A stretch of 36,623 bases of DNA, from sequence record DRR378314_658. The stretch is one strand, 5' to 3'. Numbering within the stretch: position 1 is the stretch's first letter; each line of letters starts with the position of its first letter. The notes under the pieces are model-generated. The model was not told where the DNA came from, made no database searches, and was given only the letters and a program-made list of their open reading frames with translations. Shown here piece after piece: positions 4,027-30,634 of the stretch. A program made the position numbers and the translations under genes.

Positions 4027-5428
4027 CACTGCAACCAAGCAAAAAAGCTTCACTGACTGTCGTGGCGTGCCGGTCTCTTACCCGGATACAAAAGCCATTG
4101 AAGACCTGGAACGCGCAATCATCATGTCGCTGTCCTTTCGGGGTGATGCGATAGCTGAGATAAACAAGGTTCTCAACGAGCATCCAGATTTCATCATGGG
4201 TTGGCTCTTCAAGGCGGGTTGGCTGACGCAATCCATGGAGACTCGTATTTACGACCTCATGGTCAAATCACTTGGTGAGGCGGAGAAGCGGTTCAAATCG
4301 GCGAATGACCGAGAAATAGGTCACTACGAGGCGGTCAGGGCCTGGGTGAATGGTGATTTCTTCGGTGCTGTCCAGAAATGGGAAGCGGTGCTCGTCAAAT
4401 ACCCCAGGGACCTTCTCGCGATGGAGCTTGTCCACTACGCGGACGTTCTACTAGGCGACATCGCAGGACAACGCGATGTGGTCGCGCGGTCGTCGACACT
4501 CTGGGATGAAAGCGTTCCAGGGTATGAATTCGTACTAGGCTTCTATGCCTTCGGGCTTGAGGAAAACCGTGACTTTTCTCATGCCGAACAATTGGCGCGT
4601 CAGGCTTTGGCTATTCGTCCCGATCATCCATATGCCGTGCATGCCGTTGCCCATGTAATGGAGATGAGGGGGCGTCAGACGGGTGGTGTGCGCTTTATGA
4701 ACGAGCGTGCCAATAAATGGGGCACGTCTAACTTTGCCAATCATCTTTGGTGGCATACGGCGCTTTATCACCTTGATATCGAACAATATGACAAGGTGTA
4801 TAACATCTTCGACACCCATCTGGATTCACGCCAAAAGGATGGCAATAAATACGAAGAGCTGGACGCCTCTGCCCTGCTATGGCGGATCAACCTGGTGGGA
4901 CAAGACTCCGGCGACCGCTGGAAACATCTTGCCGACAAGTGGGAGCCCGCCGCGCAGGACACGCTTTATGCCTTCAACGACGTCCATGCGATGTTGACCT
5001 TTGTATCGGACGACCGTGTAGACGCTCAAAATGAGCTTTTGTCCGCCAATGAGCGCTACATGGAAAGCGCATCGGACGCCAATGTCGCCATGAGCCGTGA
5101 GATCGGGATGCCCTTCTGTCTGGCCATGCGGGATTTCAAGAACGAGCACTATGGTGACTGCGTGGATCGGCTCTTGCCCGTGCGTTACATGACCCACCGT
5201 CTCGGCGGTTCTTTTGCGCAACGTGATATCATCGGCTGGACCCTGCTCGAAGCTGCACTGCGCGCACGCCGCTTTGACTTGGCGCTGGCGCTGGCGAATG
5301 AGCGGACTGCGCTGAAACCCACCTCGGCCCAGAATTGGCGCGCCGTAGCGCGGGCCTTCAAAGGGCTGGGGGATAGCTCAAACGCGGACCGGGCCACCGC
5401 CAAGGCGCAATCCCTAATCCACGCATGA
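4010..5428 (+). CDS. TTC38-like tetratricopeptide-repeat protein
   Basis: YAFGLEE, AVHAVAHVMEM-GR, HLWWHTAL, DASALLWR, FNDVHA, GGS-AQRD motifs typical of the TTC38 family; SD GGAAGGA before ATG 4010/4013. Confidence 0.85.
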   Translation: MMAASNTATKQKSFTDCRGVPVSYPDTKAIEDLERAIIMSLSFRGDAIAEINKVLNEHPDFIMGWLFKAGWLTQSMETRIYDLMVKSLGEAEKRFKSANDREIGHYEAVRAWVNGDFFGAVQKWEAVLVKYPRDLLAMELVHYADVLLGDIAGQRDVVARSSTLWDESVPGYEFVLGFYAFGLEENRDFSHAEQLARQALAIRPDHPYAVHAVAHVMEMRGRQTGGVRFMNERANKWGTSNFANHLWWHTALYHLDIEQYDKVYNIFDTHLDSRQKDGNKYEELDASALLWRINLVGQDSGDRWKHLADKWEPAAQDTLYAFNDVHAMLTFVSDDRVDAQNELLSANERYMESASDANVAMSREIGMPFCLAMRDFKNEHYGDCVDRLLPVRYMTHRLGGSFAQRDIIGWTLLEAALRARRFDLALALANERTALKPTSAQNWRAVARAFKGLGDSSNADRATAKAQSLIHA

Positions 5429-6648
5429 CGGCACCTGATCATAAGCCCGCTGCACGTCTGGCGCATGTTCGTCCCTCGATGATCCTCGGCCTTGTGCAGA
5501 AGGCACGCCAATTGGCCAGCGAGGGGCATCCGGTCATTGAACTTGGCATCGGTGAGCCTGACTTCACGACGCCCGATCACATCATACAAGCTGCGATTGA
5601 GGCGATCGAGCGCGACGAGACGCGCTATACCATCGTTCTCGGCACCGTGCCGATGCGTGAGGCCATCGCCGCCAAGCTGAAACGCGAGAATGATCTGGAT
5701 TGTGATCTGGCGGGCATCACCGTGGGCGGCGGCTGCAAGAGCATTATTTTCAACGCTATGATGGCGACCGCCAGCCCCGGCGATGAGGTGATTATACCAG
5801 CACCCTACTGATCCTCTTACCCCGATATTGTTGCTATGGCCGAAGGCGTCCCGGTCGTGGTGGATTGCCCGCAAAGTCAGCGGTTCCTGATCTCGCCTGC
5901 GCAATTGGCGAAGGCGATCACGCCGCACACTCGTTGGCTCGTGTTGAACTCACCCAGCAACCCAACCGGCGGTGTCTACAGCGCCGAGCATCTGGAAAGG
6001 CTGGCAAAAGTCCTGCGCGCGCATCCCCATGTCGCGATCCTGAGCGATGATATCTATGAACATCTGATGTTTAACGGGCATCGCTTTGCCTCCATCCTCA
6101 ATGTCGCCCCTGATCTGAAAGACCGGGTGCTGATCGTGAATGGTGTGTCCAAGGTTTTTGCCATGACAGGCTGGCGCCTGGGCTACGCGGCGGGGCCGTC
6201 GCAGATCATCAAGCAGATGAACGTGGTTCAGGGGCAGAGCCTGACACATGCCTGCTCGATCTCACAGGCTGCAGGTATTGCCGCGCTGAGTGGTCCGACA
6301 GGTTTCTTGGCAACGCGTTCGGCAAGCTTCCAAAAGCGACGCGATATTGTTGTTGATGCCTTGAACGTCGCCCAGGGTATCAGCTGCATTCGTCCTGAAG
6401 GCGCGTTCTATGTCTATCCCGATTGCAGCGGCGTGATCGGAAAAATGACTCCGGCTGGGCGCGTGATCACGTCTGATATCGAATTTTGCACCCACCTTTT
6501 GGAAGATCATTATGTCTCTGCCGTGCCAGGCGCGGCATTTGGCCTCTCACCACATCTGCGCATATCAACAGCAGCATCTGAAGAGAACTTGCGCGAGGCA
6601 TGTGCGCGCATTGCGGCAGCTTGCGCAGACCTGAAGGAGGCCTCGTGA
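5425..6648 (+). pseudogene. Class I PLP aminotransferase (aspartate aminotransferase-like) interrupted by an in-frame TGA at 5809-5811
   Basis: ORFs 5425-5811 and 5836-6648 share one frame and read PAPY*SSYPDIV where the family has PAPYW-SYP; GEPDF, NSPSNPTG, SDDIY, SK-FAMTGWRLGY intact. Confidence 0.88.
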
Positions 6649-7832
6649 CCGGACCGCTTACAGGCGTAAAAGTCCTGGACCTCAGCCGCATTCTGGCCGG
6701 ACCAACAGCGACACAGCTACTAGGCGACCTCGGCGCAGAGGTTATCAAGATCGAAAACCCGGCCACAGGCGGCGACGACACGCGCAGTTGGGGTCCACCC
6801 TTTGTCGAAGGCCAAGACGGGCAGGACACGGACCTAAGCGCCTATTTCATGTCCGCCAATCGCAACAAGAAATCCGTAGCAATCGACATCACCTCGATCA
6901 TCGGGCAGACGCAACTCCGTCAATTGGCTGCGCAATCGGATATCCTTGTTGAGAACTTCAAACCGGGGGGACTGCGCAAATATGGACTCGACCACAAGAC
7001 AATCCTGCAATCCAACCCGCGCCTGATCTATTGTTCGATCTCTGGCTTTGGTCAAACCGGCCCCAATGCGGCGAAGCCGGGCTATGATCTGATGGCGCAA
7101 GGTTACGGCGGGATCATGAGCCTGACAGGTGCGACCGATGGCGAACCTATGAAAGTAGGGGTGGGCGTTGCCGATGTGATGTGCGGCATGTATGCGGCCA
7201 CAGGAATTCTCGCAGCACTCCTGCACCGCAACTGCACTGGCGAAGGTCAGCATATCGACCTGGCATTGGTGGACACCCAGGTCGCATGGCTCGTCAATGA
7301 AGGGGTCAATCACCTGACATCGGGCGAAGTCCCCGAGAGGCGCGGCAATGGTCACCCGAACATCGCCCCTTATCAAGTCTTTGCCGCCGCAGATGGCGAC
7401 GTGATCATCGCTGTTGGCAATGACACGCAATTTGAGCGTTTTGTTACCTGGCTTGGTGCACCCGAGATGGCCAAGAACCCAGACTTTGCAACCAATCCGG
7501 CGCGGCTGGCCAACCGGGATCGGCTGATTGCCCTGCTCCAACCCTTGATCGCAGCCCATCCTGTTCATACAATCCTGGACGGACTCGAAGCCAGCAAAAT
7601 CCCGGTAGGCCCGGTCAACAGGCTGGATCAGGTCTTTGCCTCGGATCAGGTGCAGGCGCGGGACTTGAAAATCGAGATGCGCGCACCATCTGCGCGACGC
7701 GGCTCTGTCGATCTGATCGGGAATCCGCTGAAATTTTCAAAGACACCCGTGACTTACCGGTACCCACCTCCTGAATTCGGTGCGGATACGCAAGAAATTC
7801 TGGCGACTTTGCCAAACATGAATGAAGAATAA
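6645..7832 (+). CDS. Family III (CaiB/BaiF) CoA-transferase
   Basis: DLSRILAGP, GAEVIKIE, GDDTR, NRNKKS, ENFKPG, SISGFGQTGP, GYD; GTG 6645 overlaps the upstream TGA, SD AAGGAGG. Confidence 0.93.
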   Translation: MTGPLTGVKVLDLSRILAGPTATQLLGDLGAEVIKIENPATGGDDTRSWGPPFVEGQDGQDTDLSAYFMSANRNKKSVAIDITSIIGQTQLRQLAAQSDILVENFKPGGLRKYGLDHKTILQSNPRLIYCSISGFGQTGPNAAKPGYDLMAQGYGGIMSLTGATDGEPMKVGVGVADVMCGMYAATGILAALLHRNCTGEGQHIDLALVDTQVAWLVNEGVNHLTSGEVPERRGNGHPNIAPYQVFAAADGDVIIAVGNDTQFERFVTWLGAPEMAKNPDFATNPARLANRDRLIALLQPLIAAHPVHTILDGLEASKIPVGPVNRLDQVFASDQVQARDLKIEMRAPSARRGSVDLIGNPLKFSKTPVTYRYPPPEFGADTQEILATLPNMNEE

Positions 7833-8693: not shown

Positions 8694-8701
8694 TTAAACA
8701 C

Positions 8702-8727
8702 TGAGCGGGCCTCTCAGGGCCCGCTCA
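8702..8727. terminator. GC-rich hairpin between convergent genes
   Basis: TGAGCGGGCC-TCTCAG-GGCCCGCTCA, perfect 10-bp stem; no clear U-tract. Confidence 0.55.
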
Positions 8728-8791
8728 ATGACCCAAGCCTGGGTCACGATCTATCTCCCTGTCAATTTCGCGGGTGTTTTCCTTCTCGTCG
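8724..8791 (+). repeat. Diverged 68-bp direct repeat, left copy (partner 15284-15351)
   Basis: Ungapped alignment, 52/68 identical by manual count. Confidence 0.75.
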
Positions 8792-10647
8792 CCGCGATCC
8801 CGCTCTGCATCATGCAGGAAAGCCAGAAGACGCATGTTGAATTCATCAGGTTTGTTGAAAAACGGCGCATGTTTGCCACCCGGAATATCCTGGGGGATGC
8901 CCCGCCACAGGTTTCCATAGCGCAGACGCGCGATGTAATCGTGGTTCAGGAACGGGTCATCGCTTCCACTCAAGAGTGCGAAAGGAAATTTGCCTTGGCT
9001 GAGCATGCGCATCTGCCTTGGCCAGTCGATGATGCCCAGCTTACCAATCATATACAGCCGTGCCCGACCGTCGGTTCGACGCAAATTACGATGGAGGAAG
9101 GCAGAGTCTTCGGATACCGGTGCGGTCGCGCTGTTCCCAAAATCGGATGCCTCTTGTCGTGAAAAGTACTGTTTACTCGCCAGCACAAGATGGGAGTCAG
9201 GGTTGTAGCCCCGTCCGAAATCAATCGGTACCTGATTGAGGGGCGGGGTTCCGGCAATTGCCAAGGCCTGCACCTCGACATTCGCCCGCGCAGCCAGCTC
9301 AAGGCCCACATACCCGCCAAGCGACCATCCAATTACGCGGACATCCGCCACATTGCTGTCCTCCAGAACGGCCTCTGCAATCTCGGCATAGGCGGCAATG
9401 TTGTAGGCTGTTTCCGGATCACCATTCGACGACACACCATGCCCGGGAAAATCAAAGGAGATCACGCGGTACATGTCGCGAAAGGCGTGGAATTGTTTGT
9501 AAAATGCTTCTTTACAGGCAGAGTTACCATGCAGGAACAACAGCGCGGGTTTCCCTTTGTCACCGGTATCTGCGATGGCAATCAATCCATGCCGTGTTTC
9601 GATGAAGCGTTCTTTAGCGTTCAAACGATCTTCCCGCGCCCGGACCTCGCGTCTACGCCAGCGGGCCAAAAGGGATGTGCGCAGCGCATCTACGGCTTCA
9701 CGGAGTTCTTGCACCGCAGCCCAAAGACCACCGGGATAGAACACCACAACAAGAATAATGGCTGAAGCAATGATGATGTTTTGCCACGCACCAAAGCCAG
9801 CTAGCCATTCGGAGAGCACTGAAATGACAAAGGCAGCAATTACAGGCCCCCAGATAGTGCCGGTTCCGCCGACCAGCAGGATCGACAGCAACACCGTCAA
9901 AAACCCGATGCCAAACGCATCCGGCGAAGCGACCCGCAGGTAGGCCGCGTAAAATGCACCGGCCATCCCGGTGAAAACGGCACTTGCCATCAATGTCAGC
10001 GCGCGCGTTCGCGCCTCGGATACGCCACGGGCAATAGCGTAGTATTTGTTGTCCCGCAGCGCCACAATGGCCCGGCCAAGGCGCGAGCGTGTGAGCAGAT
10101 ACAGAAATGCCAGGTTCGCCACCAGCAATCCCAACCCCACAAAATAATATCCGATCCGTCCATCCTTGGACAAACGATAGTCGCCGATTTTCAAGGTCGG
10201 CAGCGTCACCATGCCCGAGGTTCCGCCGGTAACATCAGACCACGAAATCACAATAAAATAGATCAATTGGCTGAGCGCGATGGTCACAAGGATCACGTAA
10301 ATGCCGTCCAGCCGCAGCACAGGAAGAGAGATCAGTAGCGCAACCAGTGCGGCAGTGCCGCCGCCCGCAAGGATCGACAGCCACGGCGAAAACCCCAGTG
10401 TCTTCGCCAGAATGGAATAGGTGTAGATGCCGACAGCAAACAGGCCCACATGGGCAAAGTTAAATAGGCCACCGTAGCCCAGACTCAGATCCCAGCTTGT
10501 TGCAACGATGGCAAAGACAAAAGCCAGGATGATCACATGCCGGAAATAGGTAGCCTCGAACACAAACGGATAAGCGATCAGCGCGGCCAGAGCGATCAGC
10601 AGGGGCACAAGGCCTTGCGTCTTGTGAAGCGGGGGGTCGTACCGCAT
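8725..10647 (-). CDS. LivM-type ABC permease fused to a C-terminal alpha/beta-hydrolase (AidH-like, candidate AHL lactonase)
   Basis: N-terminal part: LSLGYGGLFNFAH, LRLDGIY, TGGTSG, SRLGRAIVALRDN, VGGTGTIWGP. C-terminal part (about 9615-8800): FLHGNS, DFPGHG, GWSLGG, GTPP, RTDGRAR, GSDDPF, GNLW-G, KHAPF. One uninterrupted frame. Confidence 0.9.
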   Translation of the reverse strand: MRYDPPLHKTQGLVPLLIALAALIAYPFVFEATYFRHVIILAFVFAIVATSWDLSLGYGGLFNFAHVGLFAVGIYTYSILAKTLGFSPWLSILAGGGTAALVALLISLPVLRLDGIYVILVTIALSQLIYFIVISWSDVTGGTSGMVTLPTLKIGDYRLSKDGRIGYYFVGLGLLVANLAFLYLLTRSRLGRAIVALRDNKYYAIARGVSEARTRALTLMASAVFTGMAGAFYAAYLRVASPDAFGIGFLTVLLSILLVGGTGTIWGPVIAAFVISVLSEWLAGFGAWQNIIIASAIILVVVFYPGGLWAAVQELREAVDALRTSLLARWRRREVRAREDRLNAKERFIETRHGLIAIADTGDKGKPALLFLHGNSACKEAFYKQFHAFRDMYRVISFDFPGHGVSSNGDPETAYNIAAYAEIAEAVLEDSNVADVRVIGWSLGGYVGLELAARANVEVQALAIAGTPPLNQVPIDFGRGYNPDSHLVLASKQYFSRQEASDFGNSATAPVSEDSAFLHRNLRRTDGRARLYMIGKLGIIDWPRQMRMLSQGKFPFALLSGSDDPFLNHDYIARLRYGNLWRGIPQDIPGGKHAPFFNKPDEFNMRLLAFLHDAERDRGDEKENTREIDREIDRDPGLGH

Positions 10648-10648
10648 A

Positions 10649-11536
10649 TCAGAGCGTCCTTTGATGGTTGCCAAGCAACCCTTCGGGCTTGAGCAGCAGC
10701 ACAACAATCATGGTTATAAACAGCACCGCGGGTGCCCAGTAGAGACCCAAAACGTAGATTGAAAACGCTTCCAGCATGCCGATGATAAAGGCGGCATAAA
10801 GTGGGCTGGAGAACCGCGCGACCCCACCAAAAATCACCACGATCAGAGCTTTCATAAGCGGCTCCGTACCCATCTCAGGGTTCATGAAACGGATTGTGCC
10901 CACGAATACACCAGCCAGGCCCGCCGTCGCAGCCGACAGGCCGAAGGCAATGGCGAAATAAAGCTGCACGTTCAACCCCAGGAGCTCGGCCGCCTCGCGG
11001 TTCTGCGATACCGCCCGCATAATGCGTCCGGGTCGCGCATAGCGCAGAAATAGTCCGAGCCCCAGCAAGATCGCCAGAACCAGCGCCAGAAGGATAATCT
11101 CGCTTGTGGCCAGGCTGATTTGGCCCAAGGCAACCTCTCCGCTGCCCAGAGACGGAATTTGCTTTGACCGCGGCCCCCAGATCAACAGCAGCCCATTTTC
11201 CAGAATGGCTGACGCTGCCAAGGTTGTGATAACCGAGATCAGGACCACATCCGCGCGCCGCTCGAAGGGTTTGACCAGCAAAAAATACATCAAGGCGCCG
11301 ACGGCAAACATCACTGCCAAGGTCAGCAGGATTGCCGGAAAGAGCGGCAAGCCCCAAGCATCCACGCTTGAAAACTGCCAGGCGATATAGGCCCCAAGCG
11401 CAATAAACGCCCCATGTGCGAAATTGAAAATGCCAAGTGTCGTCCAGACCAACGACAGCCCGGTCGCCATCAGCGCATAGAGCGCACCCAGGACAATGCC
11501 ACCTTGCAGGACTGAAGAAAGTGTTGCTGCATCCAT
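10649..11536 (-). CDS. livH: LivH-type branched-chain amino acid-family ABC permease
   Basis: GALYALMATGLSLVW, FNFAHG, GRIMRAVSQNREAAELLG, KPEGLLG. Confidence 0.92.
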   Translation of the reverse strand: MDAATLSSVLQGGIVLGALYALMATGLSLVWTTLGIFNFAHGAFIALGAYIAWQFSSVDAWGLPLFPAILLTLAVMFAVGALMYFLLVKPFERRADVVLISVITTLAASAILENGLLLIWGPRSKQIPSLGSGEVALGQISLATSEIILLALVLAILLGLGLFLRYARPGRIMRAVSQNREAAELLGLNVQLYFAIAFGLSAATAGLAGVFVGTIRFMNPEMGTEPLMKALIVVIFGGVARFSSPLYAAFIIGMLEAFSIYVLGLYWAPAVLFITMIVVLLLKPEGLLGNHQRTL

Positions 11537-12315
11537 CAGTGATATTCCCCGAACAAGAGCGCCATCAACCCGTCATGGTCTGGCATTTCGGCATGGGTCA
11601 TGCGGCCTGAAATACGCCCGTGGTCGAACAGATAAAGCGTGTCGATGATCTGTTCGAGAAACCCAACATCTTGATCAATCAGAATGATTGGCATTCCAGT
11701 TTTTCGCACTGTCAGAATTGCATCGCACAGTTCCTGCCGGATTTTTGGTGACAGACCAAGCGTGGGTTCATCAAGGATCAGCAGGCGCGGCGCTGAGAGC
11801 AAGCCAGCGGCAACCGAGACCATCTGCCGCTCTCCTCCAGACAGGAATCGGATCTTGTGATCGCCCCGTTCTGCGACGCACGGGAATAGCCCGCGGACCT
11901 GTTCCAAGCTCCAACCCTCTCGCCCTTTGGCCGCTCCGGAAGAGATTGACAGCGTTTCGCCAACTGTCAGTTCGGGGAACAAGAGGTTGCCTTGCTGAAC
12001 GTGGATCAAACCGGCGCGCGCCACGGTCTTGGGGTCCATACGCCTGCGCGTGACCGCGTCATAGTTGAAGTTGCGCCATTTGCGGCTGCCCCGTTCGCCC
12101 ACGCGATTCATCAGCTCACCGTGAAATCGGATGGAGCCTGACCATGGGTCGATCAGGCCACTCAGCGTTTTCAGGAACGTGGTCTTACCGTGACCATTCG
12201 GGCCAAAAATGCCGATGCTCTCACCTTTGTGCAAAACCAGATCAATGTCCTGAAATATCTGCACAGGATCATATCCGCCTGAAAGGTTTTCGACCTGAAG
12301 CGCGGGATCAGACAT
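11536..12315 (-). CDS. livF: LivF-type ABC ATPase with a basic insertion of about 20 aa
   Basis: Walker A GPNGHGKTT, LSGGERQM, LLILDEPTLGLSP; ATG 12315 overlaps the livG end. Confidence 0.9.
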   Translation of the reverse strand: MSDPALQVENLSGGYDPVQIFQDIDLVLHKGESIGIFGPNGHGKTTFLKTLSGLIDPWSGSIRFHGELMNRVGERGSRKWRNFNYDAVTRRRMDPKTVARAGLIHVQQGNLLFPELTVGETLSISSGAAKGREGWSLEQVRGLFPCVAERGDHKIRFLSGGERQMVSVAAGLLSAPRLLILDEPTLGLSPKIRQELCDAILTVRKTGMPIILIDQDVGFLEQIIDTLYLFDHGRISGRMTHAEMPDHDGLMALLFGEYH

Positions 12316-13045
12316 ATGCACCCCCCAGATAGGCTTCGACCACCTCCGGGTCTTTGATGACATCACCCGGCAGCCCCTGCGCAATGACCTGCCCCTGATC
12401 GAGAACCAGAAGCGTGTCTGACACCTCCATCAGCAGCGAGAGCACATGTTCGATGAGCACAATCGCGATCCCCTCTCCGCGTATGGCTAGGATCACCTCT
12501 TTCATGTTGTCAATTTCGGGCCCGGTCAGGCTGGAGGCCGGTTCGTCCATCAACAGCACACGTGGCTTTAGTGCCAGTGAGGAGGCGATCATCAACAACT
12601 TGCGGTAATAAACGGGTAAATTGCCCGCCAACATGTTGTGCATTGTGGGCGGATACCCGACTAGGTCGAGCATCTTTTCCGCCCGCGCGACTTTCTGCGG
12701 AAAGCCCAAAGCCCGCGCCTGGCTTTCGACAGCAACCAGCACATTGTCTATCGCGCTGAGGGCGGAAAAGACGTTTTCGCGCTGAAAGGTGCGTCCAATA
12801 CCGGCAAGAGCAATAGCATCGGCACGCAACCTGTGCATCTCGCGCCCTTCGAGCGTCACTGATCCAGCGGTAGCCCCGAAGGGGACGCGCGTAATGATAT
12901 TGAACAGCGTGCTCTTGCCACTGCCGTTGGGGCCAGCGATCCCGAAAATTTGCCCCGACGTCACATCAAAGCTCACATCCTGAACGGCTTGCAAACCGCC
13001 AAAACGCTTGGACATGCCGCGTACGGATAGGATGGGTTCTGTCAT
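12308..13045 (-). CDS. livG: LivG-type ABC ATPase
   Basis: KRFGGLQAV, GPNGSGKST, GIGRTFQ, LLMDEP, IEH, C-terminal VVEAYLG. Confidence 0.92.
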   Translation of the reverse strand: MTEPILSVRGMSKRFGGLQAVQDVSFDVTSGQIFGIAGPNGSGKSTLFNIITRVPFGATAGSVTLEGREMHRLRADAIALAGIGRTFQRENVFSALSAIDNVLVAVESQARALGFPQKVARAEKMLDLVGYPPTMHNMLAGNLPVYYRKLLMIASSLALKPRVLLMDEPASSLTGPEIDNMKEVILAIRGEGIAIVLIEHVLSLLMEVSDTLLVLDQGQVIAQGLPGDVIKDPEVVEAYLGGAYV

Positions 13046-13062
13046 GTCTGGAAAATCCTGTT

Positions 13063-13097
13063 TGCGCCCGCCGGACCAAAAGAGGTGGCGGGGCGCA
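13063..13097 (-). other. Imperfect GC-rich stem-loop after the binding-protein gene (possible mRNA stabiliser or attenuator)
   Basis: TGCGCCCGCC ... GGCGGGGCGCA in the SBP-livG spacer. Confidence 0.4.
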
Positions 13098-13103
13098 CTG
13101 CTT

Positions 13104-14345
13104 TTATTTTTCAGAAATCCAGGGCGGCAGGCGGAATTCACCATTGGCATAGATATCCGGGCCAACCATGACGCGCTCGCCATCCCAAAGCTGCCAGAAC
13201 GACACCGGGATGTAGTCATTGCTTTGCAGCGCTACATGGGTTTCAGGATCAAACTCCACATTGCCCGCGGCTGTTGCGACCTTGGTTTCGCCAATGGCCA
13301 CACCGATGCCGTCGTGATCGGTCGGATCGCCCACTTTCTCCAATGCAGTGAAGTACATGTTGGTCATCTCATAGAGGCCGACACCGTAAGCACCGGAATC
13401 GAAACCAAACTTATCGCGATACTGCTGCATCAGTTCCTTTCCACGTGGCCATTTTGGGGAATCCAGCGGTCCGTTGATCAGGTTGTAGAGAACACCGTTG
13501 GACTGTTCGCCGGTCAGCTCGACAAATTCCGGCACCGATGGCGCATATTGCAGGAACATCAGGCTATCGGTCGGGTTTTCCAGAAACTGTTTTAGGAACA
13601 GTGCCGAATTGCCGGGGATGTAATCCGTGTTGATTACCAGATCGGGGTTCGCCTGGTTCACCTTTGCAAGGATCACTTTCCAATCGCTCACCTCGCCAAA
13701 CGGGACCAATTCGTCAACAACAACATCCCAACCACCTTCGGAGAAACTGATTTTCATCCCCTCGGAAATCGTCTTGGAATAAGGGTTGTCCGAACTGATG
13801 ATCGCGACGGTTTTGCCGTCGATGCTGACCTTTCCGGCGTCCGCAAGCTCTTGAACCATTGGCAAAACGTCGGTCTCATAGCCCTTGAACGACGCCGTGT
13901 AGGACCAGCAACAGTTGTATGCATCTGGGTCCTGGCTGACGATGGCGGCAAATCCCGGACTGGGGCCTGCAGCAATGTAGGGCATGTTCTCTTCGGCCAT
14001 CAGATCGACCTCGAACATAGAAAGAGACGCGTAGCCCGTCAGGATCACCTCGACCCCGTCGGTCCCAAGCAGGCGCTCAACCGCGCTGGAGACGTTGGCC
14101 GCAGAGTGGTCCTTGACGTCCGCCACTTCGATTTCGAATGTGTAGCCCGCGACACCGCCCTTGGCATTCGCTTCTTCTACCGCCCATTCCACACCGCGAA
14201 TGAATTCCTCACCATCCGAGGCGGTCGCGCCGGTCAAAGGTGCCAGGACACCGATTTTTGTTATTTCCGCCGAGGCAGCCCCCAGCGTCATCAAAGTGAA
14301 GCAGGTCGCCAAACCCGTTGATCGAAGCAGTTGGCTCTGCGCCAT
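13104..14345 (-). CDS. LivJ/K-type (type I periplasmic) ABC substrate-binding protein
   Basis: Signal peptide ending AASA, KIGVLAPLTG, EANAKGGVAG; SD GGGAGG before ATG 14345. Confidence 0.9.
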   Translation of the reverse strand: MAQSQLLRSTGLATCFTLMTLGAASAEITKIGVLAPLTGATASDGEEFIRGVEWAVEEANAKGGVAGYTFEIEVADVKDHSAANVSSAVERLLGTDGVEVILTGYASLSMFEVDLMAEENMPYIAAGPSPGFAAIVSQDPDAYNCCWSYTASFKGYETDVLPMVQELADAGKVSIDGKTVAIISSDNPYSKTISEGMKISFSEGGWDVVVDELVPFGEVSDWKVILAKVNQANPDLVINTDYIPGNSALFLKQFLENPTDSLMFLQYAPSVPEFVELTGEQSNGVLYNLINGPLDSPKWPRGKELMQQYRDKFGFDSGAYGVGLYEMTNMYFTALEKVGDPTDHDGIGVAIGETKVATAAGNVEFDPETHVALQSNDYIPVSFWQLWDGERVMVGPDIYANGEFRLPPWISEK

Positions 14346-14446
14346 TCGCTTACCCTCCCATTTTGAGTTGTTTTCGTTTGACGCATCACGGTGCGACGGA
14401 GGCGGGAAGTTCACAACTGGCAAATCTTGCAATATGGATACCTTTA

Positions 14447-14468
14447 CCCCTACACTTTCACGTAGGGG
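14447..14468. promoter_or_regulatory. Lux-box-shaped palindrome in the divergent promoter region
   Basis: CCCCTAC-ACTTTCAC-GTAGGGG; the inner 20 bp fit NNCT-N12-AGNN. Confidence 0.6.
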
Positions 14469-14471
14469 GAT

Positions 14472-14487
14472 GTCTGCCGGGGCAGAC
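14472..14487. promoter_or_regulatory. Second short palindrome upstream of luxR
   Basis: GTCTGCC-GG-GGCAGAC. Confidence 0.35.
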
Positions 14488-14506
14488 CATAGTAGTGAGT
14501 CTTTCC

Positions 14507-15232
14507 ATGCCGAAGCTTGGTGAAATCAACGACTACGATGCGCCTTGGCCCAAAATGTGGGAAGGTTTTGAGGCCGGAATCGTCGACTTTCTGAAAAAAT
14601 TTGACCTGAGCTACTACAGCTATGTTCAGATCCAGAATTCGCAAACGCAACCGATCTCGGGCACGATTGATTTCAAAGCGAACTACGAGCCTGAATGGAT
14701 CAGTCGATACTGCAACCGCAGATACGATCAGGTTGATCCAGTCTGCCACTTGGCCAAGCGCGCGCGATCCCCGTTTTGTTGGGGCACCAAACAGTTTCTT
14801 TCCGCCTTTCCAAAACAACAAAGGCAGGTGTTCTGGGAAGGTCGTGACTATGGCATCTACTACGGTCTCTCGATTCCTGTGCGTGGTATAGACGGGCAAG
14901 TTAGTGTTGTTTCGTTCACAGGGAAAAGCAGAAAATCCTTGGGCGACGTGATCCACGACCAAGGGTCCAAGCTTCACGTCGCAGCCTATCAGATTTGCGA
15001 CTATCTAACGCCAAAATTGGAGCCGGAAACACTCCAGGCATCTTTGCTAACAATTCGCGAACGAGAGTGCCTTATCTGGGTATCACAGGGACTTACCAGC
15101 GAAGAAATCGCTGAACGTATTTTTTTGTCCGTGTCGACGGTTAACTATCATTTAGGCAATGTCGTACGTAAACTTGACGCCAGGAACCGGCATCATGCCG
15201 CTCTGTTAGCCTTGTCTCGGCGTCTCATCTGA
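14507..15232 (+). CDS. LuxR-family quorum-sensing regulator (autoinducer-binding domain + HTH), no luxI in the window
   Basis: NYEPEWISRY, VDPV, PFCW, YGLSIP (TraR W57/Y61/D70/P71/W85/G113 equivalents); LTIRERECLIWVSQGLTSEEIA HTH; start codon uncertain. Confidence 0.9.
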   Translation: MPKLGEINDYDAPWPKMWEGFEAGIVDFLKKFDLSYYSYVQIQNSQTQPISGTIDFKANYEPEWISRYCNRRYDQVDPVCHLAKRARSPFCWGTKQFLSAFPKQQRQVFWEGRDYGIYYGLSIPVRGIDGQVSVVSFTGKSRKSLGDVIHDQGSKLHVAAYQICDYLTPKLEPETLQASLLTIRERECLIWVSQGLTSEEIAERIFLSVSTVNYHLGNVVRKLDARNRHHAALLALSRRLI

Positions 15233-15283
15233 CCAGTTTCGAGAATTGGTAGGATCCTTCTGTTGTTTGATTTTGCCCTACAA

Positions 15284-15351
15284 CTCAATGACTGAAGCTT
15301 GGATCACCATCTATTTCGCCGTCGGTCTCACGCTTGTTTTCCTCCTCCTCG
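15284..15351 (+). repeat. Diverged 68-bp direct repeat, right copy (partner 8724-8791)
   Basis: CTCAATGACTGAAGCTTGGATCACCATCTAT... versus CTCAATGACCCAAGCCTGGGTCACGATCTAT... Confidence 0.75.
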
Positions 15352-15409
15352 GTCCTGCGCCACAACATACAAAACACGCTGTTCGTGCTTTGAGCGCCGT
15401 GCTTCACGT

Positions 15410-15740
15410 TCACCCGTACAGACTGACGCGCCCAGAAAACCTGATCAACAATGTTGATGCCCTTTTCTTCAACAAGGACAAAAAAAAGGCAGAATTGTCG
15501 AGCCACTGTGGGTCGGCGTCAGGGGTCTGTTGCGCATACGGATTGAAGCCTTCGTGTAGTGATCGAAGCTTCCAAGGCCCCGTCCCGGCAAATGCTTCTA
15601 TGAGGGCGGCTCGAAGTGCTTCCAGCATTTAGTCTGTTGCGGGGCCGTCTTAGAGCGCTGCCATGATGCGAAGCTGATCTAAGAAACTGTCTGCGTTCAC
15701 CGGGGGGACTCTAAACGATACCTGAAAGCAATCTAGGGTG
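15410..15740 (-). pseudogene. Possible decayed gene remnant, family not recognised
   Basis: One frame reads ...DSFLDQLRIMAAL*DGPATD*MLEALRAALIEAFAGTGPWKLRSLHEGF... across two TAA codons; protein-like composition only. Confidence 0.3.
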
Positions 15741-16062: not shown

Positions 16063-17949
16063 CTAAGACGCGTTTTCTGGAACTCCCAATGCTCGCAAAT
16101 CGTCTAGCCAGCGATTGTGGAACTCTTTGTCGGTGAACGGTGCAGTTTTTGCTTCTTCAATATCGTAGTCGGGATTGTCTGTTAGGAACTCGCCCATCAT
16201 GGTGCGCGCCTCGTCATCCCGCCCTAGCCGCAGCAAGATTGGAGCAAGGGTACGTCTGAGGCGATCCGGGACCCCGTTCATCTTCTCGATTGAAGCGAGC
16301 GCTCCTTCGTAGTCTTCCGCGAAGTACTGAGCCCAACCCAGATTCCAAAGATACCAATCTGGATGATGTGGATTGAGACGTATGGCAGCCTTCATCCGGT
16401 CAACGGCTTCATCTGCCCTTCCGCTGTAGATCAAAGGATCAATTGAATCGGCGAGTACCTGAGCGGAGTTCGGGTTTAAAGCAATCGCCTTCTCGTAAAG
16501 TGATGCGGCCTTCTCAAGATCGCCACTTTGCACCGTAATACTTGCCAAAACCTGATGAGCTTTGAAATTGAATGGCTCGAGCTTTATTGCCTTTCTGGCC
16601 ATTTCAAACGCGAGAGCCAAAGACTCTTCACGAGACGTAATTTCAGTCCACCCCCAGCGGTAGCCGAAGTTATGGGCCCAAGCGAGTTCGATGTATGCGC
16701 TGGCAAAATTAGGGTCGAGCTCGATTGCTTTCTGGCTCAGATCCATAGCAAGAATGTTGCCTTCTTTCGTGAATGTGAACGCCTGTTCCTGAGCGCGTTT
16801 GAAAAGCTCGTATGCATTCAAGTTGTCAGTGGGTTGGTGTTCTAACCGGTCATACTCGGCCAGGTCGATGTTCTCGTTGAGAGTCAGCGCGATCGTTCGC
16901 GTGACTTCGTCCTGGACATCAAATATATCCTCAAGACTGCGGTCGTAGCTGTCCGCCCAAAGATGTTTTCCGTTTGTTGCGTCTATCAATTGCGCTGTGA
17001 CCCGCAACTTGCCCCCTAATATTTGGACACTGCCCTCTACAATGTAGCGAACACCCAATTCCTCGGCCACCTGTTGTACCTTTACCGGCTGATCTTTGTA
17101 GGTAAATGTCGAATTGCGGGAGATTACGAAGAAATCGACAAATCGGGAGAGCGCGGTGATGATGTTTTCGCTGAAGCTGTCGCTTAAGTAGTCATGCTTC
17201 GGGTCGCTGTTCAGATTGTCGAACGCCATTACGGCAATAGACGGTTTGCCGGTTAGCGGGACAGCGGCGGGTTCAGCCGCACCGGGTGAATGGCTCGAAG
17301 TGTCCCAAGGTTGCCACAAGAGCATCCCCCCGATTGCAACTGCGACCGCGACCACTATAGCGACCAAACAAGAGCGACGTGCAGGCGCCACAGGTCGGGT
17401 GAAGGCGGAAACGAGAGCCGTTGCTTTGTCATCAAGCAACAGGCTGAAAACACGTATTGGTTCTGCAATGTTCTTGACCTCGTGAAGTCCGAGGTCTTCG
17501 ATGTTGAGGTCGAGTTTGTCTTTTACCTGATCATATACGCTGGCCGCCATATAGATGCCATCAGGCGCAGCAAGACCTTCCAGTCGCGACGCGACGTTTA
17601 CTCCGTCTCCGTAGATGTCATCGTTCTCCACGACGACGTCGCCGACGTTAATCCCAATTCGGTAGTGTATTTGGTTCTTTTCTAAGAAGTCCTTGTTTTT
17701 AACTCCGACGTAATGTTGAAACTCTATCGCGCATTGTACCGCTTCAACTGCGCTGGCAAATTCGATCAATAAACCATCGCCCATCAATTTGACGATGCGC
17801 CCTTTTCGGGCTGAAACGATAGGTTCTATCAGTTCTTCGCGATGTGCCTTAATGGACGCCAGTGTGCCTGTTTCATCTTCTCTGATGAGGCGGCTATATC
17901 CCACTACGTCTGCAGCAACTATCGCCGTGAGGCGTCGTTCCAATGCCAA
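16063..17949 (-). CDS. Class III adenylate cyclase with a TM helix, TolB-N-like domain and TPR repeats
   Basis: ADVVGYS, KLMGDG, RIGINVGDV, DIYGDGVNVASRLE; hydrophobic helix LVAIVVAVAVAIGGMLLW; PSIAVMAFDNL; TPR pattern; TTG start with SD GGGAGG. Confidence 0.92.
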   Translation of the reverse strand: MALERRLTAIVAADVVGYSRLIREDETGTLASIKAHREELIEPIVSARKGRIVKLMGDGLLIEFASAVEAVQCAIEFQHYVGVKNKDFLEKNQIHYRIGINVGDVVVENDDIYGDGVNVASRLEGLAAPDGIYMAASVYDQVKDKLDLNIEDLGLHEVKNIAEPIRVFSLLLDDKATALVSAFTRPVAPARRSCLVAIVVAVAVAIGGMLLWQPWDTSSHSPGAAEPAAVPLTGKPSIAVMAFDNLNSDPKHDYLSDSFSENIITALSRFVDFFVISRNSTFTYKDQPVKVQQVAEELGVRYIVEGSVQILGGKLRVTAQLIDATNGKHLWADSYDRSLEDIFDVQDEVTRTIALTLNENIDLAEYDRLEHQPTDNLNAYELFKRAQEQAFTFTKEGNILAMDLSQKAIELDPNFASAYIELAWAHNFGYRWGWTEITSREESLALAFEMARKAIKLEPFNFKAHQVLASITVQSGDLEKAASLYEKAIALNPNSAQVLADSIDPLIYSGRADEAVDRMKAAIRLNPHHPDWYLWNLGWAQYFAEDYEGALASIEKMNGVPDRLRRTLAPILLRLGRDDEARTMMGEFLTDNPDYDIEEAKTAPFTDKEFHNRWLDDLRALGVPENAS

Positions 17950-18262: not shown

Positions 18263-19198
18263 CTAAGCCGAGTCCTGTGGCGCAATAGTCTGTACGACCT
18301 CATCCACAAACCAACGAATGGCCGGATGGAATTGCCCCCGCTCATGCCAGAGCAGGTAATAGGGAAATTCCGCCCCTGACCTGAAAGGCACTGACACGAT
18401 ACTGGAGAATGAGGAGAGCTGAACCCCCAAACGTGACGGCGCGGCTGCAACGACGTCACTGTTTGCGACGTGGAAAGGCATGGAGGTGAAGAAAGGTACA
18501 GACAACATTGCCGGGTCATCATTGCTGGTCGCGCGCATGACGGTATCTGCTCGCAAGCGATCAACCGTCGGATAACTGAATTCGATCTGTCGGTACGGTG
18601 TGATATCCGGTGGCTCCAGAAAGCCCTTCTGCGCAGCAAGCTCGTGCAACGGATGGCCCTCGCGCATGAGAAGGACGTAGCTGTCAGTAAAGAGTTTTTT
18701 GACGATCAGGTCACCCTTCACTTTGAGCCCGGCGTAAAAGACAAAATCAACTTCACCGTCCTGAATTGCCGGAAAACTGTCTGGTACCAATGGTGTTACA
18801 TCCACTCTAACATGAGGTGCAACCGTCGCCAGCCGATCGACAAGCGGCCCAATGATGCAAGCCGCAGCATAGTCGGTACCGGCGATCCTAAAACGCCGGC
18901 TTGAATGTGCGGGATCAAACCGAGGCGGCAGAAAAACCGCTTCGGTCGCGTGGATCGCCTCAAGCACCGGTTCCTGAAGCGACAGGGCGTGATCCGTCAG
19001 CTGATACCCTGCCTGAGTTCGGATTAATAATGGATCGCCAGTCAGATCCCGAATGCGGGCAAGAATGCGACTTGCCGCAGGTTGACTGATCTCAAGCAGT
19101 TCAGCAGTTCGGGTCACGCTGCCAGTCTGCAACAGGATCCGCAGAAATCGCAAAACGCGAAAATCCATCGAAGCCAATTCATCATTCGGTTTTTGCAT
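18263..19198 (-). CDS. LysR-family regulator (NodD/NahR-like)
   Basis: GSVTRTAELLEISQPAASRILARIR-LTGDPLLIR, FDP, FRIAGTDY, LLWH, HPAIRWF; start could be 19207, 19198 or 19168. Confidence 0.9.
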   Translation of the reverse strand: MQKPNDELASMDFRVLRFLRILLQTGSVTRTAELLEISQPAASRILARIRDLTGDPLLIRTQAGYQLTDHALSLQEPVLEAIHATEAVFLPPRFDPAHSSRRFRIAGTDYAAACIIGPLVDRLATVAPHVRVDVTPLVPDSFPAIQDGEVDFVFYAGLKVKGDLIVKKLFTDSYVLLMREGHPLHELAAQKGFLEPPDITPYRQIEFSYPTVDRLRADTVMRATSNDDPAMLSVPFFTSMPFHVANSDVVAAAPSRLGVQLSSFSSIVSVPFRSGAEFPYYLLWHERGQFHPAIRWFVDEVVQTIAPQDSA

Positions 19199-19227
19199 GA
19201 TCAGCATGTTAGTTGCGTCATTTTGAT
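19193..19227. promoter_or_regulatory. Tandem T-N11-A boxes in the divergent LysR promoter
   Basis: TTGC-ATGATCA-GCAT (19193-19207) and TTGC-GTCATTT-TGAT (19213-19227). Confidence 0.4.
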
Positions 19228-19284
19228 TATGTCAAGCTAAGCGCATTTAGACCTCATCGAAACTGAACACGATGAGGAATCCCC

Positions 19285-19575
19285 ATGAGATTGGTCCAAT
19301 TGGCTTTCACAGCCAGCAGCGTCGTTTTTGCAGCCGCCATGGCGCATGCCGATGTATCGACCGAAACGCACGACCTGAACCAAGACGGAGTCGTGACGTT
19401 TGAAGAAATGCTTGAGTATCACCCAGCGGGAATTGAGCGGACCCAAGCGTTTATTGATCGTCACAGAATTATTTTCGATGGTGCAGATACGAACGGTGAC
19501 GGCGTGGTAGACGCGAGCGAAAACCAGGGTGGCGGCGCTGGAAAAACGAAGATCAAGGGCGCTAAGAAGTCTTGA
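19285..19575 (+). CDS. Small secreted EF-hand protein
   Basis: Signal peptide ending AHA; two EF-hand loops DLNQDGVVTFEE and DTNGDGVVDASE; SD GAGG. Confidence 0.85.
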   Translation: MRLVQLAFTASSVVFAAAMAHADVSTETHDLNQDGVVTFEEMLEYHPAGIERTQAFIDRHRIIFDGADTNGDGVVDASENQGGGAGKTKIKGAKKS

Positions 19576-19670
19576 GATGCCAAGTCTTCAGCACCGAGGC
19601 TGATAGAACAAACGATAAATTCCAGCCTCAACAATGCACGTAAACCTCTGAGATTAAGGTAGAAGTAAAT

Positions 19671-20699
19671 ATGCACATAACCCGCCGAACTCTTGCTGGA
19701 CAGATGGCACTCTGGGGTGCCGCAGCAGCGATCCCAGCAACCACACCTAAGCACGCCACAGCACAACCCAGGGCTTCTGGCATGTACGAAGTACGCGATG
19801 TGACCTTCCCCAGTGGCCCAGAGACGCTTGTAGGCAAACTCTTCCTGCCTGCAGGAGAGGGTTCGCATCCCGCAGTGGCGATCATGGGCCCCGTGGCGTT
19901 TGTAAAAGAGCAATCACCAGTACAATACGCCACAAGGCTGGCACAACAGGGCCTTGCGGTTTTGATCTTTGATCCGCGCAATCACGGCGCCAGTTCGGGT
20001 GAGCCGCGCCGGTTTGAATCCGGTGAGGTCAAAATCGAAGATCTTCGCGCTGCTGTCGATTTCCTTGCTGAACAGGATGGGATTGACCAAGGCCAACTCC
20101 ATCTCCTTGGTATTTGTCAGGGGGTGAATTGGACGATAGAAGCTGCGGCTCAGGACGAGCGGATCGCATCGCTTGGAATTGTTGCCGGTCACTACCTGAC
20201 CCCCGAAACGGCAATCATGTATCTCGGCGATGCTGCGTCGGTCGAGGCGCGCATGAACCGCTCAGCGGCGGCCGCCGCGAAGTTCTCCGAGACCGGTACG
20301 GTGGACTATATTCCAATAGTCGGTTCCCCCGAAGCCCTGTTGACAGCCACAGCCGTCGCCGAGTGGTATCTGCCATGGGACAACGAAGCGCCGTGGTTTC
20401 TCCATCGCGGTGGTTGGGAAAACCGGATTACAGCAATGAGCGAAGCGGGAATTTGGGGCTGGCAGATCAGCGACGCGGCATCGCGCCTCACATTGCCGGT
20501 TCTCATGGTCCACGGTGACAAAGCCGCCAGCGGCCCGGATATTCCGAAGCGAATCTATCAACAGATCCCTTCGGCCCATAAAGCACCTCACTGGATCGAT
20601 GGTGCCAATCAGCTTCAATTCTATGAGGACCCGCTGACCATCGACCGTGTCGTTGCGGTTCTTGGCCCGTATTTCCGGGGTGAGCAGATCAGCCTTTAA
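19671..20699 (+). CDS. Tat-exported alpha/beta-hydrolase with a Cys nucleophile elbow
   Basis: ITRRTL twin-arginine leader; VKEQ, FDPRNHGASSGEPR, GICQG, PVLMVHG, GANQLQFYE. Confidence 0.82.
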   Translation: MHITRRTLAGQMALWGAAAAIPATTPKHATAQPRASGMYEVRDVTFPSGPETLVGKLFLPAGEGSHPAVAIMGPVAFVKEQSPVQYATRLAQQGLAVLIFDPRNHGASSGEPRRFESGEVKIEDLRAAVDFLAEQDGIDQGQLHLLGICQGVNWTIEAAAQDERIASLGIVAGHYLTPETAIMYLGDAASVEARMNRSAAAAAKFSETGTVDYIPIVGSPEALLTATAVAEWYLPWDNEAPWFLHRGGWENRITAMSEAGIWGWQISDAASRLTLPVLMVHGDKAASGPDIPKRIYQQIPSAHKAPHWIDGANQLQFYEDPLTIDRVVAVLGPYFRGEQISL

Positions 20700-20815
20700 C
20701 GCTGCTCCGATACGCGGTGATCACGAGCCATCCACAAGTTCTGGTTCGTGATCATCCGTTGTGGAGCAATGTAGCATGGCCTCGACGGCAGGCCGTTTCA
20801 AAGAGAGTTTTGACA

Positions 20816-21706: not shown

Positions 21707-21871
21707 ACGCGGATTGAATGAGAAAAGGTTGCGACACCCAATAGACTGTTCGCAGCCCCAAGCGGGCGTCATTCCTAATCGGTGCAACATGAATGGTAAC
21801 AATTGATTAAATGACAATATATTTGCGGAGCTCCACAAGATAGCGCAAAAAACCCCAAAAGGAGTGATCAA

Positions 21872-28098: not shown

Positions 28099-28314
28099 TG
28101 CTGCATCTCCTCGATGAAATCAATTCTGCTTACCCTCAAGCAGAGTTATCCGACGACGGGCGCGAACATAGCAGGGTATTGATACTCTTTTTCATAACCT
28201 GTCAGGGGGTAGCACGCAATTCGCGGTGCGATGTGATCGGTTAGAATTTCTTGATGAAAGGAAATTTCTTTCAATTCTTCCACGGGGTGAGAAATGCCAG
28301 ATTAGCAGATAGAG

Positions 28315-30623: not shown

Positions 30624-30634
30624 GGTTTCCAAAC

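Follow-up and report, generated by a model that had tools for sequence, protein, structure and literature searches.

Here, we describe a six-gene unit at positions 8725-15232 of a 36,623-nt stretch of DNA from a marine Ruegeria (sequence record DRR378314_658, hereafter the window), which consists of five minus-strand genes and a divergent gene for a LuxR-type regulator. The five genes encode an ATP-binding cassette (ABC) importer of the Liv type, in which the last permease is fused to an α/β hydrolase related to AidH, a lactonase of acyl-homoserine lactones (AHLs). We propose that this self-contained unit senses, imports and inactivates AHLs or very close acyl-homoserine-lactone relatives, a prediction from sequence comparisons to which we give an even chance of being right. 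The AHL reading is the most economical one because a LuxR with a canonical pocket and a hydrolase of the AidH clade are linked with an importer across hundreds of species. An initial annotation of the window had put forward the same sense-import-destroy interpretation, which has gained from the conserved synteny, the LuxR pocket and the AidH kinship but has lost ground on two points, namely that Tyr160 of AidH is Phe here and that the palindrome noted upstream of the operon is not conserved.

Pfam families confirm the layout given in that annotation, that is a Liv-type five-gene ABC operon, a last permease bearing a hydrolase domain, and a divergent LuxR regulator (Table 1). The operon genes are co-directional and tightly packed on the minus strand (14345 → 8725), starting with a periplasmic substrate-binding protein (SBP) whose ATG is preceded by a GGGAGG ribosome-binding site. 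The start of livG was set at MTEPILSV, on grounds that include the beginning of the profile alignment, the start of livF overlaps the end of livG by 8 nt, that of livH overlaps the livF stop by 1 nt, and the fusion gene begins two nucleotides past the livH stop. In the longest open reading frame (ORF) of the fusion, BPD_transp_2 spans residues 58-320 and Abhydrolase_1/6 residues 387-624 of one and the same protein. The hairpin directly downstream of the fusion gene (8701-8717) is only suggestive of a terminator because the whole region has 13 such sites vs. 8.2 ± 3.3 in shuffles. A sigma-70 promoter scan found no site in the luxR/SBP intergenic region, a negative of no weight given that the scanned region has 4 sites vs. 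4.1 expected by chance.

The unit recurs far beyond Ruegeria. Scanning one genome per species (185,579 species), we found relatives of the fusion in 353 genome stretches, mostly from marine and soil Alphaproteobacteria. The best 80 of these 353 were examined, with up to 10 kb of flank and with the window proteins mapped by tblastn, and all locus counts below rest on them; 11 break off short of the SBP gene and another offers just 320 nt of upstream sequence, which leaves 68 informative loci. In 60 of the 68, a divergent luxR lies directly upstream of SBP-livG-livF-livH-fusion, and these loci span Rhodobacterales, Hyphomicrobiales, Sneathiellales and Rhodospirillales. The synteny that the initial annotation had singled out is thus conserved across several alphaproteobacterial orders, and homologous operons are linked to luxR. 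Beyond the six genes, there are no conserved neighbors in the fetched flanks, where the largest cluster, a LysR-type family, is present in 17 of the 80 loci. A protein search retrieved 318 homologs of the fusion among 8000 scored candidates, and all 120 of those listed have both the permease and the hydrolase Pfam domains. The fusion was not seen on plasmids in PLSDB, where none of 15 matches covers ≥80% of it and all are stand-alone hydrolases or unfused permeases.

LuxR and the fusion show correlated pairwise distances (Mantel test, Spearman r 0.52, permutation p 0.001, 55 loci, five of the 60 being dropped for incomplete fusion matches). This fits co-inheritance, but some correlation would also arise from common descent by itself. 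That luxR stands beside the operon by chance, or through a recent local rearrangement, is hardly credible. While eight of the 68 loci lack an adjacent luxR, the other 60 keep the same divergent layout in several orders even as their outer neighbors differ, LuxR and fusion co-diversify, and a conserved box lies between their genes (see below).

The hydrolase domain is specifically AidH-like, and AHL lactonase activity is predicted for it. When the last 291 residues of the fusion were used as a phmmer query against all PDB sequences, the top matches were three sequence variants of one protein (4g5x, 4g8c and 4g8b), which passages of PMC3532132 identify as AidH, the AHL lactonase of Ochrobactrum. 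The match to 4g5x (E 4.6e-49, 170.6 bits) aligns residues 1-265 with residues 9-269, including the cap domain, and the next PDB entry after AidH scores 47.5 bits. Structural comparison gives the same picture, since the top eight Foldseek matches of the AlphaFold2 (AF2) model are all AidH chains, with a template modeling (TM) score of 0.86-0.87, a root-mean-square deviation of 2.5-2.7 Å and 34% identity. Non-AidH matches have TM ≤0.78, and the next one listed is the membrane-bound phospholipase A 6i8w (TM 0.65). In this model, the predicted local distance difference test (pLDDT), averaged over 10-residue blocks, is mostly 76-95 over residues 321-470 and lower, at 42-92, in the C-terminal part, to which the cap belongs. 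Because AidH is the nearest solved relative by a wide margin, the link to AidH drawn in the initial annotation holds and goes beyond a shared fold class.

The catalytic features of AidH are in place. The domain displays an HGNS oxyanion motif with N375, a GWSLG nucleophile elbow with S442, and D564 and H593; in the HMMER alignment, Asn33, Ser102, Leu103, Glu219 and His248 of AidH correspond to N375, S442, L443, D564 and H593. According to passages of PMC3532132, Ser102, His248 and Glu219 are catalytic in AidH, and Asn33 and Leu103 provide backbone contacts. Among the window protein and its 120 fused homologs, N375, S442 and L443 are invariant (121/121), and D564 and H593 are found in 120/121, the Asp at the position of Glu219 being a conservative change of the triad acid. 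Compared with AidH of Ochrobactrum sp. T63, the domain has the same fold and cap, the HGNS motif, the GWSLGG elbow, the catalytic His, an RTDGRAR motif and a mostly hydrophobic pocket. Whereas AidH is soluble and stands alone with about 270 aa, here the domain forms the C terminus of an ABC permease.

A search of the hydrolase domain against 1.84 billion representatives returned 124 clusters at E ≤1e-30. Only one is a full-length fused form (63% identity), the remaining near-full-length matches being stand-alone proteins, mostly of about 260-350 aa and 30-44% identical; the score of AidH would place it approximately fifteenth among these clusters. In the best 150 representatives, no further permease fusion was found beyond this single full-length fused cluster. 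A 587-aa protein (P0248), considered as a second permease fusion, was rejected because it is a tandem hydrolase. Since the single fused cluster stands among otherwise stand-alone relatives, the fusion is one clade inside the AidH-like family.

Alternatively, the hydrolase might not act on the cargo at all. It could hydrolyze lipids or thioesters, or serve the transporter as a regulatory appendage, and LuxR would then simply bring an otherwise ordinary importer of amino acids or amides under quorum control. A Thioesterase match in Pfam (weak and below cut-off) and the rank of phospholipase A 6i8w as nearest non-AidH fold match could be cited for it. We consider it very unlikely. Pocket and triad are of the AidH kind and strictly conserved, the fusion has persisted as a single clade in which the linker is fixed, and it is difficult to see why a catalytic domain on an importer should stay linked with a receptor of the AHL type unless the cargo is its substrate.

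Stand-alone relatives of the domain occur in other settings. On plasmid pAtS4b of Allorhizobium ampelinum S4 (L081), an AidH-like hydrolase (7004-7825), 36% identical to the window domain, adjoins repC of this conjugative repABC plasmid, and three Agrobacterium tumefaciens plasmids have similar genes at the same site.

As for the regulator, its sequence points to an AHL receptor. Both Pfam domains score well above cut-off (Autoind_bind, E 2.3e-22, 79.5 bits, cut-off 23; GerE, E 7e-17, 61.3 bits, cut-off 23.5), and among solved structures it is closest to the AHL receptors QscR, TraR, RhlR, LasR, CviR and SdiA. The AHL pocket appears intact. In an alignment to TraR (1h0m), Y53, W57, Y61, D70, P71, W85 and G113 of TraR correspond to Y60, W64, Y68, D77, P78, W92 and G120, so that the W/Y/D/P/W/G set listed in the initial annotation is complete. 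These seven residues of the N-terminal domain are invariant in 60/60 LuxR orthologs, most of which are only 33-50% identical to the window protein, and the DNA-binding domain of the window protein also retains E178, L182 and G188 of TraR. It is nevertheless no TraR ortholog by model NF010444 (85.8 bits vs. a cut-off of 250). We infer that its ligand is an AHL.

The regulator qualifies as a LuxR solo by context, because luxI is missing both from the window, as the initial annotation had noted, and from the surroundings of luxR in the 60 loci. Of the 69 window ORFs with ≥120 aa, 68 were scanned with Pfam and gave no Autoind_synth domain, the 69th being an open-ended duplicate of a scanned ORF, and the 107 ORFs found up to 1.8 kb past luxR in the 60 loci include no AHL synthase. 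The unit thus travels without a synthase. The same chemistry might serve a different role, in which the cell, instead of eavesdropping on foreign signals, recaptures and turns over AHL of its own making to reset the signal or to recycle homoserine and fatty acid, a scenario that we regard as rather unlikely. In its favor, the window covers only 36.6 kb and luxI could be elsewhere in the genome, a loop that limits itself fits signal turnover equally well, and passages of PMC6333666 report Ruegeria strains that produce and degrade AHLs. It is countered by the same missing luxI in the window and in the 107 ORFs beside luxR, even if a synthase might be encoded elsewhere.

Between luxR and the operon, the 161-nt intergenic region contains two perfect inverted repeats with 7-nt arms, CCCCTAC-N8-GTAGGGG and GTCTGCC-N2-GGCAGAC. 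The former is probably the lux-box-shaped palindrome of the initial annotation, which is indeed present there but not conserved, as neither repeat recurs in the other 57 related intergenic regions. Both were rejected as operators since, among 58 regions, each is confined to the window locus; by a rough estimate, one such inverted repeat in 161 nt is not far from chance. What is conserved is an adjacent 20-bp box (14415-14434), reading AACTGGCAAATCTTGCAATA on the plus strand and TATTGCAAGATTTGCCAGTT towards the SBP gene, and the intergenic regions of close relatives share the element TTTTGCAAGATTTGCCAGTT. A position weight matrix (PWM) derived by expectation maximization scores the window box at 28.0 bits and finds sites of ≥14 bits in 49/60 intergenic regions, compared with 2/300 equal-length control segments from the same loci and 0/300 shuffles, a contrast that is somewhat inflated because the model was trained on the same regions that it scored. 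The box takes the form of clear dyads in some clades (ACTAGCAGATTTGCTAGT, AACTAGTAGATCTACCAGTT), which we take to resemble tra- and lux-type boxes, and reads TTGGCAAACCTTTGCAA in others. It lies upstream of the SBP gene, ~75 nt from the start codon, and 47/50 loci share its orientation. Its distance to the SBP gene (standard deviation 12.6 nt) is far more constant than its distance to luxR (37 nt), which ties it to the transporter promoter and makes it a candidate operator of the transporter operon. The only other PWM match in the window, TTTTGCCAGCCTTTCCAGAT at 5990-6009 (-) with 16.8 bits, falls inside an aminotransferase gene and is probably due to chance.

The transporter has the make-up of the HAAT family, with a Peripla_BP_6 SBP, two BPD_transp_2 permeases and two ATPases, one of which displays the LivG C-terminal motif. 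It shares with E. coli LivJHMGF / UrtABCDE the five-component layout and the Pfam family of each part, but neither of these systems has a hydrolase fusion or LuxR control. Orthology to Liv or Urt is not supported, since every NCBIfam equivalog score is below cut-off: the SBP falls below the cut-offs of both UrtA and LivJ (66 vs. 477 bits for the LivJ type), the LivG-like ATPase scores 177.8 bits (cut-off 362), the LivF-like ATPase 148 bits with UrtE and 111 bits with LivF (both below cut-off), the LivH-like permease 145 bits with UrtB (cut-off 250) and 101 bits with LivH (below cut-off), and the LivM-like domain 112 bits (cut-off 366).

The N terminus of the SBP is signal-peptide-like, with a hydrophobic stretch ending in ASA before EITK, and because of this SBP we take the direction of transport to be import. 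The protein is well conserved (mean column identity 72% over 33 orthologs) and well modeled (AF2 pLDDT 89.9). Its nearest structure is 3h5l from Silicibacter pomeroyi (29% identity, TM 0.81-0.84), and its other fold neighbors are binders of leucine, γ-aminobutyric acid/alanine, L-pyroglutamate, urea, aromatic acids and fatty acid, those for amino acids and urea being only 17-21% identical to it. Since these neighbors include binders of hydrophobic and ring-shaped ligands, an AHL is not outside the range of the family, and the ligand of this SBP may be one.

The permease domain of the fusion is modeled with about ten helices, at low confidence (pLDDT 30-60), and no solved relative was found for it by sequence. 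It contains a K/R-rich loop (residues 187-215), as expected of a cytoplasmic coupling region. RbsC, a related permease, has ten helices with both termini inside. The last membrane helix is directly followed by a linker helix (residues 308-342) rich in R and K, RWRRREVRAREDR, along which the block pLDDT rises from 44-65 at the start to 80-87 and which is found in all 18 aligned homologs. This basic linker, by the positive-inside rule, and the approximately ten helices would place the hydrolase in the cytoplasm, beside the ATPases.

In the mechanism that we propose, the LuxR-type protein would bind the signal in the cytoplasm and act at the 20-bp box to control the five-gene operon, as an activator rather than a repressor, we infer. 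The SBP would capture the ligand and pass it to the LivH/LivM-type permease pair powered by the LivG/LivF ATPases, so that the cargo would exit at the cytoplasmic face beside the AidH-like serine hydrolase, tethered to the C terminus of the LivM-like permease by the ~35-residue basic helix. The hydrolase would then open the lactone ring to give N-acyl-homoserine. In this way, the cell might clear the signal from its surroundings, for quorum quenching or scavenging, and the loop would be self-limiting in that it destroys its own inducer.

Several findings weigh against this mechanism or against AHLs as its cargo. In the prevailing view, AHLs get across membranes with no need for ABC importers. 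The nearest structure to the SBP, 3h5l, has no assigned ligand, and nothing among the other fold neighbors points to AHLs specifically. The topology itself is a deduction, because AF2 models the membrane domain with low confidence. At 34% identity to AidH, α/β hydrolases do change substrate. Furthermore, Tyr160 of AidH aligns with Phe503 of the window protein, in a part of the cap where the alignment is possibly off by a residue or two, and of the 121 fused proteins 69 have Tyr, 50 have Phe and 2 have Leu at the equivalent position. In AidH, according to passages of PMC3532132, Tyr160 forms a hydrogen bond with the lactone ring oxygen and holds the product hydroxyl, and its replacement strongly impairs catalysis.

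The eight loci without an adjacent luxR, which indicate that the transporter-hydrolase can work without it, also belong on this side. Three from Mesorhizobium (L076, L077 and L079) and one from Lichenihabitans (L062) have an ArgE-type deacylase upstream (PRK07522, 452-460 bits, above cut-off). In Mesorhizobium, this gene and one for a weakly lactonase-like Amidohydro_2 protein are both upstream on the same strand as the SBP gene, while in L062 the ArgE-type protein is on the opposite strand and there is no Amidohydro_2. Of the remaining exceptions, one is from Rhodoferax, where a LuxR is encoded on the same strand at a distance of 3 kb, and three are loci of metagenome-assembled genomes with unrelated neighbors. 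A deacylase is also found beside the nearest unfused paralog among those found, on plasmid pBSY16_1 of Sinorhizobium sp. RAC02 (L082, 568-7930; SBP 44% and permease 50% identical). Here, the order is a glutamine-synthetase-like gene (gamma-glutamylputrescine-synthetase-like), an ArgE/DapE deacylase, SBP, livG, livF, livH and livM, the last encoding 341 aa with no hydrolase, and an IclR-type regulator is downstream. Because this paralog and the Mesorhizobium variants carry deacylase neighbors, there is a hint that the transporter subfamily carries N-acylated amino compounds in general, a class to which AHLs belong, as do many other molecules. These neighbors can also be accommodated under the AHL reading, in which the ArgE-type proteins of the luxR-less loci could deacylate N-acyl-homoserine downstream and, together with the Amidohydro_2 protein, would fit its further breakdown.

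The same machinery might handle, as a nutrient or as another kind of signal, a compound other than a classical AHL, which LuxR would then sense. It could be an ester, a lactone or an N-acylated amino compound, such as another γ-lactone, an N-acyl amino-acid ester or a homoserine-lactone derivative. We find this reading unlikely on balance but far from negligible. It would agree with the small polar solutes that Liv/Urt-type systems normally carry, with the amino acids, urea, pyroglutamate and aromatic acids bound by the SBP neighbors, with the Phe at the Tyr160 position, with an identity to AidH of only 34%, and with the ArgE/DapE-type deacylases of luxR-less fused operons and the unfused paralog. 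A PipR solo, moreover, uses an ABC importer for the non-AHL compound HEHEAA, as passages of PMC10134790 report. Two observations argue for AHLs instead. Non-AHL LuxR solos described in passages of PMC4338825 have pocket substitutions, e.g., W57M and Y61W in the plant-associated group, whereas this LuxR has none in 60/60 orthologs. In addition, the sole characterized close relative of the hydrolase acts on AHLs.

The closest parallel in logic is the Lsr system (LsrR, LsrACDB and LsrK/F/G), which takes up autoinducer-2 (AI-2) and phosphorylates it. In both cases, a signal-responsive regulator goes with an SBP-dependent ABC importer and the signal is, or here would be, enzymatically destroyed inside, and the permeases belong to the same Pfam family, BPD_transp_2. 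The two systems differ in signal class, in the type of regulator (LuxR here), in chemistry (phosphorylation there, hydrolysis here) and in the fusion of the enzyme to the permease found here. Since NCBIfam matches are far below the Lsr cut-offs (LsrC, 25 vs. 388 bits; LsrA, 98-102 vs. 586 bits), the unit is not orthologous to Lsr. PipR-type solos likewise combine a LuxR solo, a ligand-importing ABC transporter and an α/β-fold hydrolase gene, as described in passages of PMC10134790 and PMC4338825. There, the PipR/OryR-type LuxRs carry W57M and Y61W and do not bind AHLs, the importer is of the Opp/Dpp type and the proline iminopeptidase is separate, whereas here W and Y are retained and the importer is Liv-type with a fused, AidH-like enzyme. 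A precedent for tethering is QsdH of Pseudoalteromonas byunsanensis, which passages of PMC3466314 present as a proven AHL lactonase within an inner-membrane transporter, in the form of an N-terminal GDSL hydrolase in the predicted first periplasmic loop of a resistance-nodulation-division efflux pump. Compared with the fusion described here, its fold is unrelated, the membrane side and the transport direction are opposite, and it comes without a LuxR link.

Literature searches aimed at a LuxR with a Liv-type importer and a fused AidH-like hydrolase found no description, in line with the initial annotation, to which no described system with this architecture was known. The matching passages of two LuxR-solo surveys (PMC10134790 and PMC4338825) contain no such context, although their supplementary tables, which lie outside that search, might list it, and according to a November 2025 preprint an active AHL transporter has yet to be reported. 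The parts are all of known kinds. What is new is their combination, in which control by a LuxR of the AHL type goes together with a Liv-type importer and with an AidH-like enzyme tethered to the permease. That this is the first dedicated ABC importer for AHLs, an AHL counterpart of Lsr with cleavage on entry, and that environmental AHL removal is a common trait, is a proposal whose chances we put slightly short of even.

AHLs are usually treated as freely diffusing, and quenching enzymes known to us are soluble or secreted. If the AHL reading is correct, AHL uptake becomes an active, regulated process through which signals could be removed with high affinity, both in the rhizosphere and in marine settings that are dilute or alkaline. 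The unit would then also illustrate clearly how, in nature, an enzyme joined to an importer can process the cargo at the exit. Present in at least 353 reference genomes, it would make environmental AHL removal a common, unrecognized trait, for which the LivM-AidH fusion with a divergent luxR would be a compact marker of quorum-quenching potential in genomes and metagenomes. Should the cargo turn out not to be an AHL, the linkage, in 60/68 loci, of a transporter-hydrolase to a LuxR solo with a canonical pocket would still point to a ligand for a large group of orphan LuxRs.

Table 1. Features of the six-gene unit and its intergenic region (window coordinates)
Feature	Position	Strand	Evidence
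Periplasmic SBP, 413 aa	13104-14345	-	Peripla_BP_6, E 2.3e-41
LivG-like ABC ATPase	12308-13045	-	ABC_tran and BCA_ABC_TP_C
LivF-like ABC ATPase	11536-12315	-	ABC_tran
LivH-like permease, 295 aa	10649-11536	-	BPD_transp_2, E 4.2e-34
Fusion protein, 640 aa, LivM-like permease and α/β hydrolase	8725-10647	-	Pfam
LivM-like permease domain of fusion, residues 1-305 from MRYDPP	9733-10647	-	BPD_transp_2, E 4.5e-39
Basic linker helix of fusion, residues 308-342	9622-9726	-	Helix by DSSP in AF2 model
AidH-like α/β-hydrolase domain of fusion, residues 345-620	8788-9615	-	phmmer and Foldseek
LuxR-type regulator, 241 aa	14507-15232	+	Autoind_bind and GerE
Conserved 20-bp operator candidate, lux/tra-box-like	14415-14434		PWM, 28.0 bits
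Perfect palindrome CCCCTAC-N8-GTAGGGG, not conserved	14447-14468		Inverted-repeat search
Perfect palindrome GTCTGCC-N2-GGCAGAC, not conserved	14472-14487		Inverted-repeat search
Terminator-like hairpin directly 3' of the fusion-gene stop codon, weak evidence	8701-8717	-	Hairpin scan

Two further genes are found next to luxR. A 128-aa ORF directly after it (15246-15632, +) has no Pfam or NCBIfam match, and tblastn finds only its own genome record. Just beyond, an adenylate/guanylate-cyclase protein with TPR repeats is encoded at 16063-17949 (-). Cyclase-domain genes accompany the unit in 7/60 loci, mostly in Hoeflea and related Rhizobiaceae (also L050, L053, L074, L075, L078 and L080), which may be a lineage-specific coincidence or a second signaling link.

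Elsewhere in the window, a class I/II aminotransferase gene (5425-6648, +) is split into two same-frame ORFs by an in-frame TGA at 5809-5811 (...PAPY*SSYPD...), a position that we take to be usually Trp. Pfam aligns one half with profile positions 2-100 and the other with 112-361, and the TGA represents a nonsense mutation, a pseudogene or a sequencing error. At 18263-23482, a LysR gene is divergent from genes for an α/β hydrolase (Hydrolase_4), a family-less ORF and an FAD-dependent monooxygenase (FAD_binding_3), forming an uncharacterized catabolic cluster. Finally, at 27175-33936, another LysR gene is divergent from genes for an acyl-CoA ligase, a cupin-type dimethylsulfoniopropionate (DMSP) lyase (PF16867), a FadB-like enoyl-CoA hydratase/3-hydroxyacyl-CoA dehydrogenase and a thiolase, which together look like a DMSP/acrylate catabolic cluster.

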